Origin: an uncultured archaeon
GTDB taxonomy: Archaea; Iainarchaeota; Iainarchaeia; Iainarchaeales; CSSED10-239
NCBI GenBank assembly: GCA_964496765.1
Contig: CAZCAP010000008.1
Span: forward strand, 1,646 to 33,645
Direction of reading: 5' to 3'
Length of the DNA: 32,000 nucleotides
In this document: in pieces, positions 12,710-19,626 of the stretch
Layout of the letters: every line of letters begins with the position of its first letter
How positions within the stretch are numbered: position 1 is the first letter of the stretch
The notes under the pieces: generated by a model
Told to the model about the DNA's origin: nothing
Databases searched by the model: none
Seen by the model: the letters and a program-made list of their open reading frames with translations, nothing else
Program-made: the position numbers and the translations under genes

Positions 12710-12720
12710 AAATAAATCAA

Positions 12721-13503
12721 TTACAATCTTTTTATAAATATTTTTTCTGTTAATATTTTGCTATCAAATTGATGTTCAAATTGAAATCCTCTTTTTTTAA
12801 AAGCTACTTTGACTTCATCATAAAACTTATTTAATTTTTTTCTAAAAATGATTGTTCGAAGATAATCAAATGGTTCAGTTAAAGTTAAGTCGGTTTTTGT
12901 AAATGTAATAAAAGCGCAACCTTCTTTGTTTAATGAATATGCGGTTTTTAAAAGCACATTTTTTTTAAGTTCATCTAGTGTATACTGAAAACCACCATAT
13001 GTTGAAAAAATAAGGTCTTGCTTTTTATCAGGAACAATACTTTTTGTTCCATTTTCATATTTCATTCTTTCAATTGGATTAACAATAATATGATCAATGT
13101 TTTTTGTTGAAGATAACTTCGTATCACTTGGATCAATAGTAATTCCAGTGGTTTCAACAATGTATTTGGATTGCAATTCTTTTTTTATTTCCTGTAGAAA
13201 TTTACCTTCCCCAAGCCCTTCATCCATGATACGTAGTTTTTTGTGTTTAAAATTAGCATTTATGAATTCAATTAAATTTTTTTCTTTAAATAAGGATTTA
13301 AATATATAATTATATTCTTGCAATCCCTTGTTCTTATTCCATTTAAGTGGTTTAAACCCATCACCAGGAATATATCTTTTTCTAATCTTTGCATTGTATT
13401 TTACATATTTTTTTCTAATTTCTTGTGTACGTAATTTTTTATAGATTTCTCTAACTTGTAATTCTGCCATCCCTCCCTTAGGAATTTTTTTAATAAGCAC
13501 CAT
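12721..13503 (-). CDS. Hypothetical protein, possible class I SAM-dependent methyltransferase
   Basis: ATG start. Gly-rich motif I candidate LRIMDEGLGEGKF, motif IV-like DLIFSTYG, and LNKEGCAFITF resembling the post-motif strand. The match is weak and made by eye only. Confidence 0.45.
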   Translation of the reverse strand: MVLIKKIPKGGMAELQVREIYKKLRTQEIRKKYVKYNAKIRKRYIPGDGFKPLKWNKNKGLQEYNYIFKSLFKEKNLIEFINANFKHKKLRIMDEGLGEGKFLQEIKKELQSKYIVETTGITIDPSDTKLSSTKNIDHIIVNPIERMKYENGTKSIVPDKKQDLIFSTYGGFQYTLDELKKNVLLKTAYSLNKEGCAFITFTKTDLTLTEPFDYLRTIIFRKKLNKFYDEVKVAFKKRGFQFEHQFDSKILTEKIFIKRL

Positions 13504-13614
13504 ACACTATCAACCTATATATATTACGTTATCTAATGATTTAAAAACAAATCTTTCTAATTGAATTAATTTAAATTATATATTTTCACAACTTAAAAAA
13601 GAAAATAGATTAAC

Positions 13615-15200: not shown

Positions 15201-17945
15201 TTATACTTTATATCTTAGAAAAGCACCTAGTCCACCAAATGTTTCAAAGAATTGCTTTCCTTCTGGAGATTCAATTGAAATTAGTTCAACCTTAGTGCTT
15301 GTTTCTTCTGCAATCTCAACAAAGTAATCAAAGATATCTAGTTCTTCAATTAATTCTGAATCCTTGCCACAGGAGGAACAAACAATTGTTTCTTTCTTTT
15401 CTTCTTTTTCTGGATCTCTAATTATTTTATAATCAATATTGTTACACGAATTGCACTTGTACTTGTTTGCCATCCAGGTTATTCCTTCGGAGAGGAGGAT
15501 GCTATCCACTTGTCCAAGATTTAATGCATTCATTACCTCTCTATAACCATAGGTCGCAAGTTCATTCTTAGCAACCTTTTCAACAAACTTATTAACAAGT
15601 GCTCTTTCCTTCATTACTCCTACTTCTTTTAGAATATCTCCAGATTTATCAAGTATTTCTTTTATTCCTGATTCATCTGTGTAGGATGTGTCTATTGTTC
15701 CAAGAACCTTATCTCTTAGTCTATGATCAAGATCTCCTGCTTCTAAAAACCAATTTTTAGAATGCCCTGGTCCACCAACCACGATACCCTTAAGCTTTTC
15801 AATACCAACAAAGGTTGCATTTACTTTTTCTCCAACTCTTTTGTAAAAGTCCTCTTCAGCTTTTTCTCTAAGACGCTCGAAACGATGTGATGAATTATGA
15901 ACAACAAGCCCATTCGCAATAAAATTTTTATTTTTTACTGTGATGTCAACCATAGAGGTTGATGTTTGTTTTTGTATATGTATTTTACTTATTTTAACAG
16001 GAATTACTGGGTAATCCATTATCTTTTTTAGATCTATATATAATTTTTTATCTTTGATTTTCTTTAAGATTGAACTTTCAAAGGTTGCTTTACCCATCAT
16101 TCTTTTGTTATTAAAGAAAGCACTAACTTTTGGGAATAATTGAAGATTATATCCTTTTGTTTCAATTAATTTTCTAATAAAACTACCAGACATAATTATT
16201 TGTCTTGATCGTTCCATATTTGATTTTTTAGTGATTACTTTGTCAAGTATTATTTGTTTTTTCTTAGATGTAAATCCAATTTTTTTCTTAAATAATTGCA
16301 ATGATGCTTTTTCAGTAATTGATATTGTAAATCTATGATTATCCGTGTATGGGTTCATATAATTATCATATTCAACGAGTGATGAAATTATTGAAAATCT
16401 TAATAGAACTAATTGTATTTGCTGAGCCAATCTCTTGTTATTTATTCCAAAACCAACTCCTCTATCAAGATTAACATATCCTTCCGCATCAAATAATCCT
16501 TTTAAGAAGCTTGCAAGAATACTGTTTGGAGAACACAATATTTGTTTTGGAATTAATGTATCTCTTGCTTTCTTTAGCTCAGGGAATTCTTCTTTAATTA
16601 ATCTTACAAGAGGCCTGCTTGTAAATCTTAATTGATGATAATTTTTTGTCTCTCTGAATCTATAACTTGAATTTACTGAAAAATAAGAATCATATTTCTT
16701 TTTATATGCCAAAGCAACATCTTTATTCTGTTCAGAGAAGGAGATTCTATCCTCTTCAAAGTTTCCATCTCCAGCAAAATACCCCATAAACTGAGCAAAC
16801 ACTATATCTATTTTGGTTGGAAGCTTAATATTTGTATAAATTGTATTTATAGTGTATTTTTTTAAAAATGTAGAATAGTTTATTTTTAATTTATTACAAA
16901 TATTTTTTAAAAATTCTCTATTTATATTTACTTTTCCAATCTCAACACCTGAAATTGCAGTTTGGGTAACTCCTAAACTTTTTGCAAGTTCTTTTTGAAA
17001 TAGCTTTCTTTTTTCTCTTTCTTTTTTTAATAAACTTTTTCCTTCTTTTGTGATTGTAAATGAATTATAATATTTTTTTGAATCAATTACTTGAATAGTT
17101 CCTTTAACATCTATTTTTTCAGGCATTAATAAAGTATCTCCTTCTTTAAGATCTTCTGCTGTCTTTTCAATAACTTCAGTTCCTGTATGAACGAAGAAGA
17201 GATGATCTTTGCTGGATTGGATTTCAAGTCTTGGTTCCTTTGTTATAATTGTATAAATTTTGTTCTTCTTTACATCCCATTTGTTTGAAACTACAGAATC
17301 AAATAGATTATAATTATTAAAATTTATGGATTTAACATCTTGATTCTTGGATAGTTCTTTAATGTCAATTATGTTTCCATCAGCTAATTGAACAAATGCG
17401 TCTTTTAAACATTGACCTCCAGCACGTGATTTACCTGGAACAGCAGATGTTTCATTACTTATAATTTGAATTGCTTTCCCTCTAAGAATAGCAAGGGTTG
17501 CTTCTCTCTTATCAACAGCAATAAAACCATAAACTTCGTCTGTTTCAGCCATCTCTTCTAGTGGAGTTGTATGAAAAGAAGAATCACACCAATAAAGCTT
17601 GGTTGTTAATCTCTTTGGTGGAATAATTTCAAGAAGAGTAACATCTGATTTGGATGGATTAGTTGAAACGTCTCCTGAAAAAAGAACTAATCCATTTTCT
17701 GGAAGCTTGAAATCTATTTGTCTTAGATAATTAATTATTCTTTTTAGAGCTGCTTGAACATTTTTTCTAGTCTGAGAGCTCTTTATGTTTGATGATTGAC
17801 TTTGCTCATCAGTTAATTGCTTAGTAACTGTGCTTCTATCAGCATCAGGAGGAAGGTACACACTTATTAATTGGGTTCCTGTTCCTTTAAACTTCTTAAT
17901 TGCTTTTAATTTCTTTTTTAATAATAATAAATTTGTTTCATCCAT
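15201..17945 (-). CDS. prf1: Peptide chain release factor aRF1, interrupted by an in-frame intein
   Basis: N-extein residues 1-178 carry NIKS (SSNIKSSQ), YWCDSSF and ...PGKSRAGGQ. C-extein residues 685-914 start SSHRFERLRE and continue through the aRF1 middle and C domains. The exteins sum to 408 aa, a normal aRF1 length. Confidence 0.95.
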   Translation of the reverse strand: MDETNLLLLKKKLKAIKKFKGTGTQLISVYLPPDADRSTVTKQLTDEQSQSSNIKSSQTRKNVQAALKRIINYLRQIDFKLPENGLVLFSGDVSTNPSKSDVTLLEIIPPKRLTTKLYWCDSSFHTTPLEEMAETDEVYGFIAVDKREATLAILRGKAIQIISNETSAVPGKSRAGGQCLKDAFVQLADGNIIDIKELSKNQDVKSINFNNYNLFDSVVSNKWDVKKNKIYTIITKEPRLEIQSSKDHLFFVHTGTEVIEKTAEDLKEGDTLLMPEKIDVKGTIQVIDSKKYYNSFTITKEGKSLLKKEREKRKLFQKELAKSLGVTQTAISGVEIGKVNINREFLKNICNKLKINYSTFLKKYTINTIYTNIKLPTKIDIVFAQFMGYFAGDGNFEEDRISFSEQNKDVALAYKKKYDSYFSVNSSYRFRETKNYHQLRFTSRPLVRLIKEEFPELKKARDTLIPKQILCSPNSILASFLKGLFDAEGYVNLDRGVGFGINNKRLAQQIQLVLLRFSIISSLVEYDNYMNPYTDNHRFTISITEKASLQLFKKKIGFTSKKKQIILDKVITKKSNMERSRQIIMSGSFIRKLIETKGYNLQLFPKVSAFFNNKRMMGKATFESSILKKIKDKKLYIDLKKIMDYPVIPVKISKIHIQKQTSTSMVDITVKNKNFIANGLVVHNSSHRFERLREKAEEDFYKRVGEKVNATFVGIEKLKGIVVGGPGHSKNWFLEAGDLDHRLRDKVLGTIDTSYTDESGIKEILDKSGDILKEVGVMKERALVNKFVEKVAKNELATYGYREVMNALNLGQVDSILLSEGITWMANKYKCNSCNNIDYKIIRDPEKEEKKETIVCSSCGKDSELIEELDIFDYFVEIAEETSTKVELISIESPEGKQFFETFGGLGAFLRYKV
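15894..17411 (-). mobile_element. Intein (506 codons) with LAGLIDADG homing-endonuclease domain and XRE-type HTH
   Basis: It starts with Cys179 (codon 17409-17411, CLKDAFVQLADGN) and ends ...FIANGLVVHN (Asn684 codon 15894-15896), followed by Ser+1. LAGLIDADG motifs are FMGYFAGDGNF (16758-16793) and FLKGLFDAEGYV (16473-16511). A block-B-like His is present in SSKDHLFFVHTG. Confidence 0.9.
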
Positions 17946-19041: not shown

Positions 19042-19626
19042 ATGCCAAAACCATTAAAAATTGCTATAAAGAAATTATTTGGAAAATCATTAACCTTTAG
19101 AGAAAAATGTGAAGGACTTGGAATTGAGAGGAATGGATACCTAAAAAAAATCACTCTCAATAAAAAAGACAAAACTAATAAGCATGATTTTCAATTAACA
19201 TTATTAGAAAAAAGAAAGTTCATGGTTAGAAGAGGACTTCAGAAAGCAGAAAAAAAATTAAAATTAGCAACTGAAATAATAAATAAACTAGAAAGTAAAG
19301 TTAGGAATCTGGGTTCAGCAATCTCTATTAAAGGAGATATAGATGTATTCGCACTCCGTCAAGTAGCAAAATACACTCCAACTCATTGGGAATACAGGAA
19401 AGTAGCAGTTGATGCAAGAAATTATGCAAAAATTAATTTCATAGAGGTTTACCAAGAATATATTAAAAAACACAAAAAGAAACTGGATGATATTAGTAAA
19501 ACTGATGTGCTAAATATATTACGTGAAGCTGGCAAAAAAAGAGAAAAAGTGCTTATTTATGGAGACAGAGTAATCGTTAATCTTCTAGGGCAAAAAAGTA
19601 CAAAAAGAAAAATAGCTGGATTATAG
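19042..19626 (+). CDS. Hypothetical Lys-rich protein
   Basis: ATG preceded by AAGGAGAAG. 194 aa, highly basic, with predicted coiled-coil-like segments. It overlaps the herA-like stop region by 6 nt in convergent orientation. No family recognised. Confidence 0.5.
   Translation: MPKPLKIAIKKLFGKSLTFREKCEGLGIERNGYLKKITLNKKDKTNKHDFQLTLLEKRKFMVRRGLQKAEKKLKLATEIINKLESKVRNLGSAISIKGDIDVFALRQVAKYTPTHWEYRKVAVDARNYAKINFIEVYQEYIKKHKKKLDDISKTDVLNILREAGKKREKVLIYGDRVIVNLLGQKSTKRKIAGL

Follow-up and report, generated by a model that had tools for sequence, protein, structure and literature searches.

A probable homing-type class-1 intein at the catalytic GGQ motif of the archaeal release factor aRF1, with a helix-turn-helix domain ahead of its endonuclease

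Introduction

Most inteins are found in the replication and repair network, outside which the archaeal class-I translation termination factor, aRF1, lies. The intein of yeast VMA1, PI-SceI, is the model for the homing cycle by which such elements spread. Among solved endonuclease-bearing inteins, diverse accessory domains, some of them resembling a helix-turn-helix (HTH), lie between the endonuclease and the C-terminal half of the HINT splicing domain, C-HINT (PMC8966425), and the main text of a survey of intein hosts remarks that few inteins reside in translation components, and lists aIF2 (PMC4760082). Here we describe an aRF1 gene carrying an intein in a 32,000-nucleotide stretch of contig CAZCAP010000008.1 from an uncultured archaeon (the window; all positions are those of this stretch). 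The insert lies at the peptide bond between the Gln of the catalytic GGQ motif and the Ser that follows it, and it is in our judgement highly probable that it is a canonical class-1 intein, splicing-competent and of the homing type.

Results

An aRF1 gene interrupted at its catalytic loop

The gene and its two exteins, with the motifs that identify the host protein, are laid out as follows.

15201-17945, minus strand: aRF1 precursor gene, 914 codons plus stop, from the list of open reading frames (ORFs), with Pfam eRF1_1/2/3 and intein domains and TIGR03676 in two stretches
17412-17945, minus strand: N-extein, residues 1-178 ending AGGQ, comprising aRF1 domain N and the start of domain M
17789-17778, minus strand: NIKS motif (residue 53), in the N-extein
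17594-17574, minus strand: YxCxxxF motif, here YWCDSSF (residue 118), in the N-extein
17420-17412, minus strand: GGQ motif (residues 176-178), the last residues of the N-extein
15894-17411, minus strand: intein, 506 aa (precursor residues 179-684, CLKDAF...GLVVHN), from Cys1 to His-Asn; these bases are absent from the syntenic allele L001
15204-15893, minus strand: C-extein, residues 685-914 (SSHRFERLRE...), the remainder of aRF1 domain M and domain C, including its zinc-ribbon insert
15893-15891, minus strand: Ser+1 (Ser685), codon TCA, the first C-extein residue

Joined in silico, the exteins give a 408-aa protein with the loop GGQ-S-S-H-R-F-E-R-L-R, which matches the NCBIfam aRF1 equivalog model TIGR03676 in a single stretch (residues 8-408, profile positions 4-403) at 471.7 bits, well above the model's cut-off of 234.7 bits; the unspliced precursor matches the same model in two separate stretches, and Pfam eRF1_1 covers precursor residues 13-132. 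Searched against the PDB with Foldseek, the exteins of the modelled precursor find aRF1 4af1 first (E 4.6e-27), together with eRF1, in an alignment that spans across the insert. The host protein thus has what is expected of a class-I release factor: a passing equivalog match, three domains, the NIKS, YxCxxxF and GGQ motifs, and a fold like that of 4af1. An earlier note, made from the letters of this DNA, had proposed a 506-aa insert at 15894-17411 of a 914-aa ORF, flanked by exteins 1-178 and 685-914 whose joining into 408 aa would restore a GGQ-S-x-x-F-x-RLR loop. Translation bears out these boundaries to the base, TIGR03676 now runs end to end, and the single stretch together with an intein-free allele shorter by exactly the insert places the exteins colinearly with aRF1 across the junction.

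That allele came from a search with the spliced extein, which recovered intein-free aRF1s of 408 aa (P0121 and P0122, 94% identical). The contigs that encode P0122 are syntenic with the window and carry, in this order, phosphoribosyltransferase, small ORF, aRF1, TruD, DUF5654, OmdA and helicase. In this empty allele, L001, exactly 1518 bp are absent, nucleotide identity is 83-85% on both sides of the intein, and the aRF1 gene is about 87% identical to that of the window; the comparison with an intein-free relative that the earlier note had called for therefore fixes the insertion point exactly. Linkage of aRF1 to TruD is common to Iainarchaeota loci, whether occupied or empty, and from this conserved linkage and the synteny with the empty allele we take the window gene to be the orthologous and presumably primary aRF1. 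Among the genes of the window there is no second aRF1, no Pelota and no further intein. The genome likely has a single aRF1 gene, and only in that case would all termination rely on splicing. Independent samples from Logan, ENA and JGI yield eight contigs that encode the identical protein, which excludes an assembly artefact.

Splicing residues and domain architecture

The insert divides into two HINT halves, an HTH_3 domain, an endonuclease and an accessory domain.

17411-17409, minus strand: intein Cys1 (Cys179 of the precursor), codon TGT, block A
17064-17411, minus strand: N-HINT, intein residues 1-116, with block A Cys1 and block B S67-x-x-H70; beta-strands in AlphaFold2 (AF2) models
16845-17063, minus strand: XRE-type HTH_3, intein residues 117-189, from Pfam HTH_3, between N-HINT and the endonuclease
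16272-16844, minus strand: double-motif LAGLIDADG homing endonuclease domain, intein residues 190-380, from Pfam LAGLIDADG_3 and Foldseek
16799-16758, minus strand: LAGLIDADG motif 1, FAQFMGYFAGDGNF (...GYFAGD215G...)
16517-16473, minus strand: LAGLIDADG motif 2, LASFLKGLFDAEGYV (...LFDAE310G...)
16014-16271, minus strand: helical accessory domain, intein residues 381-466, located between the endonuclease and C-HINT; the AF2 model has helices at 383-465
15894-16013, minus strand: C-HINT, intein residues 467-506, with block F MVDITV containing D489 and block G NGLVVHN
ending at 15894, minus strand: terminal His-Asn of the intein, ...CATAAT, block G

Pfam recognizes the insert as Intein_splicing (E 1.3e-20, intein residues 8-506), LAGLIDADG_3 (E 7.3e-19) and HTH_3 (38 bits, with a gathering score of 23 bits), and its G+C content is 26.3% as against 33-35% in the exteins. 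We counted conservation over an alignment of 121 inteins from the same site. Cys1, Ser67, His70, Asp489, His505 and Asn506 are invariant in 121/121, as is Ser+1; block B reads S67-K-D-H70, with Ser in the canonical Thr position of T-x-x-H, and both of these residues are among the invariant ones. The element therefore shows every mark of a class-1 intein, namely a nucleophile at position 1, block B, the block F Asp, His-Asn, a +1 Ser and a HINT fold split by inserted domains. The earlier note had named Cys1, a block-B His, two LAGLIDADG motifs, His-Asn and Ser+1, each of which we find in both the sequence and the alignment, and the splicing blocks A, B, F and G on which its call depended are all present. 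On these grounds splicing competence is very likely.

The AF2 model of the precursor has a predicted local distance difference test score (pLDDT) of 89, and a model of the intein by itself has a pLDDT of 92 and a predicted template modelling score (pTM) of 0.91. The domains follow one another as N-HINT strands (1-116), HTH (117-189), endonuclease (about 200-380), accessory domain (381-466) and C-HINT (467-506). Foldseek pairs the insert with the TliVMA intein 7qss, whether taken from the precursor model (E 3e-23, template modelling (TM) score 0.76) or from the intein-only model (E 6.8e-22, TM 0.74), with PI-PfuI, PI-TkoII, PhoVMA and PI-SceI as further matches; the nuclease core matches I-DmoI and I-Tsp061I with TM 0.65-0.70. 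Sequence-level matches in the PDB are consistent with these fold matches.

The endonuclease has the features of a monomeric double-motif LAGLIDADG enzyme: two helices, each with a terminal acidic residue, and a pair of alpha-beta-beta-alpha-beta-beta-alpha units. Its catalytic acids are well kept among the same-site inteins, with D215 in 118/121 and Glu or Asp at position 310 in 117/121.

Two further modules, the HTH_3 and the helical accessory domain after the endonuclease, did not figure in the earlier note. The HTH_3 is a five-helix bundle in the AF2 model, with helices at intein residues 122-186, and the segment has PDB sequence matches to C.BclI and PezA. It is present in 108/121 same-site inteins, where Q139, Q150, S154, E157 and G159, an XRE signature, are conserved; variants without it retain the flanking KKY residues, which suggests that the HTH-less state arose by secondary deletion. 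HTH_3-bearing relatives of the aRF1 intein, confirmed by Pfam, also occur in other hosts, namely FttA/aCPSF1 (P0346), a metallo-beta-lactamase (MBL)-fold protein (P0297) and two unassigned proteins (P0311, P0366). In three more, P0309, P0333 (with a UDP-GlcNAc 2-epimerase host) and P0335, an HTH was found by local search and did not receive Pfam confirmation. The presence of such kin in unrelated hosts makes the HTH a property of the intein lineage and not of aRF1, and inteins with the order N-HINT, HTH_3 and LAGLIDADG appear to form a wider family, of which our literature search found no description.

Distribution, selection and target site

Inteins at this site are common in DPANN archaea. 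The best 120 of 424 matches to the precursor are all aRF1s of 682-921 aa with an intein at the identical junction (GGQ/C...HN/S, with slashes marking the spliced bonds), and most of the 77 clusters at 50% identity (E<=1e-30) are aRF1s with an intein at the GGQ site. Such inteins occur across Iain-, Woese-/Nano-/Pace-, Aenigmat- and Micrarchaeota, and the genomes surveyed for the GGQ site include the complete ones of Candidatus Forterrea multitransposorum and Candidatus Fermentimicrarchaeum limneticum. In GTDB species genomes the site is found in four states: occupied by an intein with homing endonuclease (HEN) and HTH (486-577 aa), by one with HEN and without HTH (426-435 aa), by a mini-intein of 131-157 aa that is homologous to both HINT halves of the large inteins, or empty. 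One public protein (P0099, 682 aa) holds an intein with a gutted endonuclease. This range of states is that expected of a homing cycle in which a site is invaded, the intein becomes fixed, its endonuclease decays and the element is finally lost.

Selection was estimated as the ratio of nonsynonymous to synonymous divergence (dN/dS) from a comparison of the window with L010, the closest relative that bears an intein. The intein has an overall dN/dS of 0.096 (HINT 0.08-0.10, HTH 0.13, HEN 0.08, accessory domain 0.11), and the exteins 0.05-0.10. At synonymous sites the window, L010 and L001 lie at roughly equal distances from one another (pairwise extein dS of 0.57-0.91), yet the first two are occupied and L001 is empty. 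Across the family, intein and extein identities are correlated (r = 0.66) and have similar means (51% and 50%, respectively); a block of pairs departs from this relation, with ~80% identity between inteins and ~57% between exteins, and this discordance suggests occasional transfer. The pattern of site states, a dN/dS of ~0.1 in every module and the intein/extein discordance together indicate an element that is splicing-competent and probably still mobile.

The reconstituted insertion site reads, on the coding strand, GGTAAATCACGTGCTGGAGGTCAA up to the junction and TCATCACATCGTTTCGAGCGTCTT after it. Directly after the junction the occupied alleles of the window and L010 have TCA-TCN-CAT-CGT and the empty L001 has AGT-TCG-ATG-AGA, a difference at 9/12 nucleotides. 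Between window 15870-15893 and L001:2755-2778, 13/24 nucleotides differ, including a change from His to Met at +3, against a gene-wide divergence of about 13%. This difference within the clade may reflect flanks co-converted from a foreign donor or an empty allele that resists cleavage, and we offer it as a lead only. We also considered a signature of target-site immunity across the family, comparing 24-27 nucleotides on each side of the site in 28 HEN+HTH, 7 HEN-only, 8 mini-intein and 33 empty alleles, and rejected it: TCN and AGY Ser codons, and all Gly and Arg codons, occur in every class.

The surrounding locus

The window encodes a CCA-adding enzyme, Dph2, FttA/aCPSF1, proteasome beta, a Hel308-like helicase, TruD, aRF1, HerA, PAC2, aIF2-alpha, GINS, primase, Rad50, PCNA, Orc1/Cdc6 and three tRNAs; it is unremarkable for a small, AT-rich archaeal chromosome, and its closest named relatives are metagenome-assembled genomes (MAGs) of DPANN archaea of the Iainarchaeota/Diapherotrites type. 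Three neighbouring ORFs merit mention in their own right.

12721-13503, minus strand: 260-aa ORF without a Pfam match, inside a segment of ~885 bp (~12711-13595) that is missing from L001
8829-9767, minus strand: 312-aa ORF with a BRO-N domain (PF02498), between two housekeeping genes, those for an FKBP-type protein and the Hel308-like helicase
19042-19626, plus strand: 194-aa lysine-rich ORF without a Pfam match, with ~67% nucleotide identity to its L001 counterpart and flanks at 83-85%

In L001, TruD/DUF5654 and OmdA lie about 50 bp apart, so that the ~885-bp segment is an insertion/deletion polymorphism. The BRO-N domain is typical of viral and mobile-element proteins. The lysine-rich ORF near the aRF1 cluster is, judged by its divergence, a fast-evolving gene.

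Discussion

Proposed life cycle of the element

In the cycle that we propose, the 914-aa precursor would be translated whole, after which the HINT domain, using Cys1, the block-B Ser and His, the block-F Asp, the terminal His-Asn and Ser+1, would excise itself and ligate the exteins into a normal 408-aa aRF1, as its fully conserved splicing chemistry leads us to expect. The freed 506-aa intein would then act as a monomeric homing endonuclease that cuts intein-less aRF1 genes at the GGQ-coding site, into which it would be copied by repair. The intact catalytic acids, the purifying selection, the presence/absence polymorphism and the discordance between inteins and exteins all point to homing of this kind. 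The XRE-type HTH_3 and the helical accessory domain would most likely add DNA contacts flanking the endonuclease saddle, by analogy with the accessory domains of the VMA, PI-TkoII and PI-SceI inteins, and the most economical reading of the HTH_3 is as an additional DNA-binding module that extends or stabilizes target recognition.

The GGQ loop of a release factor must enter the peptidyl-transferase centre, while domain N reads the stop codon and domain C binds aEF1-alpha. With the insert sitting in the loop that makes this entry, the unspliced precursor should be inactive and could be dominant-negative; with its decoding domain N and its domain C intact, it may be a competitor of mature aRF1 in the way that GGQ-mutant eRF1 is. 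An inactive or competing precursor would select for fast and efficient splicing and would account for splicing residues that never vary across the alignment. Since its decoding domain is retained, the precursor is well suited to the question of whether incomplete splicing poisons termination.

Homing, fixation or regulation

Active homing is in our estimate probable, with less assurance than attaches to splicing, and several observations weigh against it. Intein and extein divergence are mostly congruent, as they would also be if the element had long been inherited vertically and now moved little. No viral carrier came to light, a scan of IMG/VR with the intein alignment having yielded only endonuclease relatives of 23-32% identity and no aRF1 intein. 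Family-wide, occupied and empty alleles cannot be told apart consistently by the codons that flank the junction, so the target site is undefinable from sequence alone. Finally, the accessory domain of solved inteins follows the endonuclease and the HTH_3 here precedes it, which leaves the role of the HTH a matter of analogy.

The first two of these observations would suit an intein that still splices and no longer homes, being inherited vertically and retained either because it could hardly ever be deleted precisely from the GGQ loop or because its endonuclease, HTH and accessory modules are useful to the host; that the element is conserved to the same degree as its host protein would suit it too. 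We nevertheless consider such a domesticated intein unlikely, since occupancy differs between near-identical hosts, mini-inteins and endonuclease-deleted forms exist as they would in an ongoing homing cycle, some pairs have inteins far more alike than their exteins, and the endonuclease keeps both its catalytic acids and a dN/dS of 0.08.

A second possibility, to which we attach little probability, is that splicing is conditional, responding to redox state at Cys1, to temperature or to substrate, and so gates the supply of aRF1, with the excised intein perhaps serving as an XRE-type regulator. A canonical and strongly conserved XRE HTH within an intein invites this idea, as does a precursor whose decoding and aEF1-alpha-binding domains could compete at stop codons, and conditional splicing of other archaeal inteins is documented (PMC11409957, PMC10663303). 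However, HTH-less variants and mini-inteins work at the GGQ site in other lineages, so that neither module is needed for host viability; the HTH_3-bearing kin in unrelated hosts point to an accessory role for the endonuclease and not to one specific to aRF1; and nothing specific supports a moonlighting role. That the insert is instead a non-splicing 1.5-kb insertion in a decaying aRF1 paralogue, or a mis-join in assembly, is suggested by its low G+C content and is effectively refuted by the intact reading frame, the identical protein on eight independent contigs, the same junctions in the best 120 of 424 homologues, extein dN/dS of 0.05-0.10 with NIKS, YxCxxxF and GGQ retained, and the orthologous locus.

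The mobile, splicing-competent intein that we favour is accompanied at its site by a series of variants (HEN+HTH, HEN only, mini-intein and empty) that forms a test system for how accessory DNA-binding domains contribute to homing-endonuclease targeting, and it is a possible source of new meganuclease scaffolds.

Replacement of the GGQ glutamine in relatives

The catalytic Gln of GGQ, supposedly invariant, is replaced in many DPANN aRF1s, whether or not they carry the intein. Among 46 intein-bearing cluster representatives, the motif ahead of the intein is GGW, GGM, GGF or GGS in 15. Of the nearest homologues of an Aenigmatarchaeota extein (P0386-P0505), 120 show the motif; it reads GGW in 119, and 118 of these 119 have no intein. 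Among Iainarchaeota-type homologues, GGW or GGF is found in 5/118. GGW occurs in P0260, P0272, P0284, P0298, P0305 and L043:3483-3560, GGM in P0281, P0294, P0300, L045, L059 and L071, GGF in P0263, P0267, P0256, P0299 and L051:1633-1700, and GGS in P0278. The codons that replace Gln are ordinary ones (TGG, ATG and TTC). Four intein-free GGW or GGF proteins that we tested pass the aRF1 equivalog model at 463-477 bits, the intein-bearing GG[W/M/F/S] representatives that we inspected retain NIKS and YxCxxxF, and one GGF allele is at the conserved locus that links aRF1 to TruD. The replaced motif is mostly followed by S-Q, and in one third by S-A; the S-Q context is reminiscent of GGxSQ, a motif that has been reported for VLRF1 families (PMC6514570).

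One could picture an arms race in which the endonuclease targets GGQ-coding DNA and hosts escape by recoding it, even to the point of replacing Gln, as in the GGW, GGM, GGF and GGS alleles, which include empty and re-invaded ones. We regard this as improbable; were it true, such archaea would terminate translation without the canonical Gln. The replacements of GGQ by GGW, GGM or GGF may matter more than the intein itself.

In two proteins, P0289 (residues ~127-367) and P0303 (~131-636), a second intein precedes the Cys of YxCxxxF (...LYM/C...HN/CDDHYH), in addition to the intein at the GGQ site, so that both key functional motifs of aRF1 are intein targets.

Annotation and novelty

Intein-bearing aRF1s go by inconsistent names at NCBI, among them 'LAGLIDADG family homing endonuclease', 'helix-turn-helix domain-containing protein', 'hypothetical protein' and 'aRF-1' (P0002, P0003, P0012, P0058, P0059 and P0120 are examples), and JGI labels them 'eRF1/intein/homing endonuclease'. 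As a result, marker-gene and completeness analyses of DPANN archaea can overlook aRF1, and the factor can look absent from the annotation. The earlier note did not place aRF1 among the classical insertion sites and had cautioned that the allele might prove common and already catalogued. The caution was apt in that the GGQ allele is common in databases and machine-annotated there; the novelty held in that a full-text literature search, whose scope lay outside InBase and subscription journals, found no paper describing an intein in aRF1 or eRF1. A term search of the main text of the survey PMC4760082 likewise returned no mention of a release factor or of eRF/aRF.

Comparison with known inteins

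The best matches in both sequence and fold are TliVMA and PhoVMA (7QSS, 7QSU and 7QST; PMC8966425), PI-PfuI (1DQ3) and PI-TkoII (2CW7), which share with the aRF1 intein a class-1 HINT, a nested double-LAGLIDADG endonuclease and a helical accessory domain before C-HINT, and which are likewise inserted in the catalytic loop of an essential protein. Sequence identity is only 11-18%. Those inteins sit in the V-ATPase P-loop, ribonucleotide reductase (RNR) or PolB, whereas the intein described here sits between GGQ and Ser of aRF1. It also carries an extra HTH_3 in the linker from N-HINT to the endonuclease, where the VMA inteins have an unstructured loop of 28-32 residues (PMC8966425).

PI-SceI, too, is an intein-borne LAGLIDADG enzyme with an extra DNA-recognition region beyond the saddle, but that region is an insertion within HINT and not an HTH_3, and the fold match is weaker (TM about 0.48). 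WhiA, which is among the fold matches (3HYI and 8DY9), also combines a LAGLIDADG scaffold with an HTH; it lacks the nuclease acids and is not part of an intein, whereas in the aRF1 intein the acids are intact and the HTH comes before the endonuclease. The archaeal aIF2/IF-2 intein (PRK14845), listed by Novikova et al. 2016 (PMC4760082), likewise resides in an essential translation factor, and the IF-2 intein model is the best NCBIfam match of the insert's intein region; the target here, in contrast, is the catalytic motif of a termination factor.

In mechanism, then, the element is already known and not surprising in kind, a textbook class-1 intein with a LAGLIDADG endonuclease. Its host and site (aRF1, between GGQ and Ser), its breadth in DPANN archaea and the HTH_3 in its N-terminal linker are new. 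With it a termination factor, at the catalytic GGQ loop, joins the list of intein targets, in support of the rule that inteins take up residence where functional sites are most conserved.

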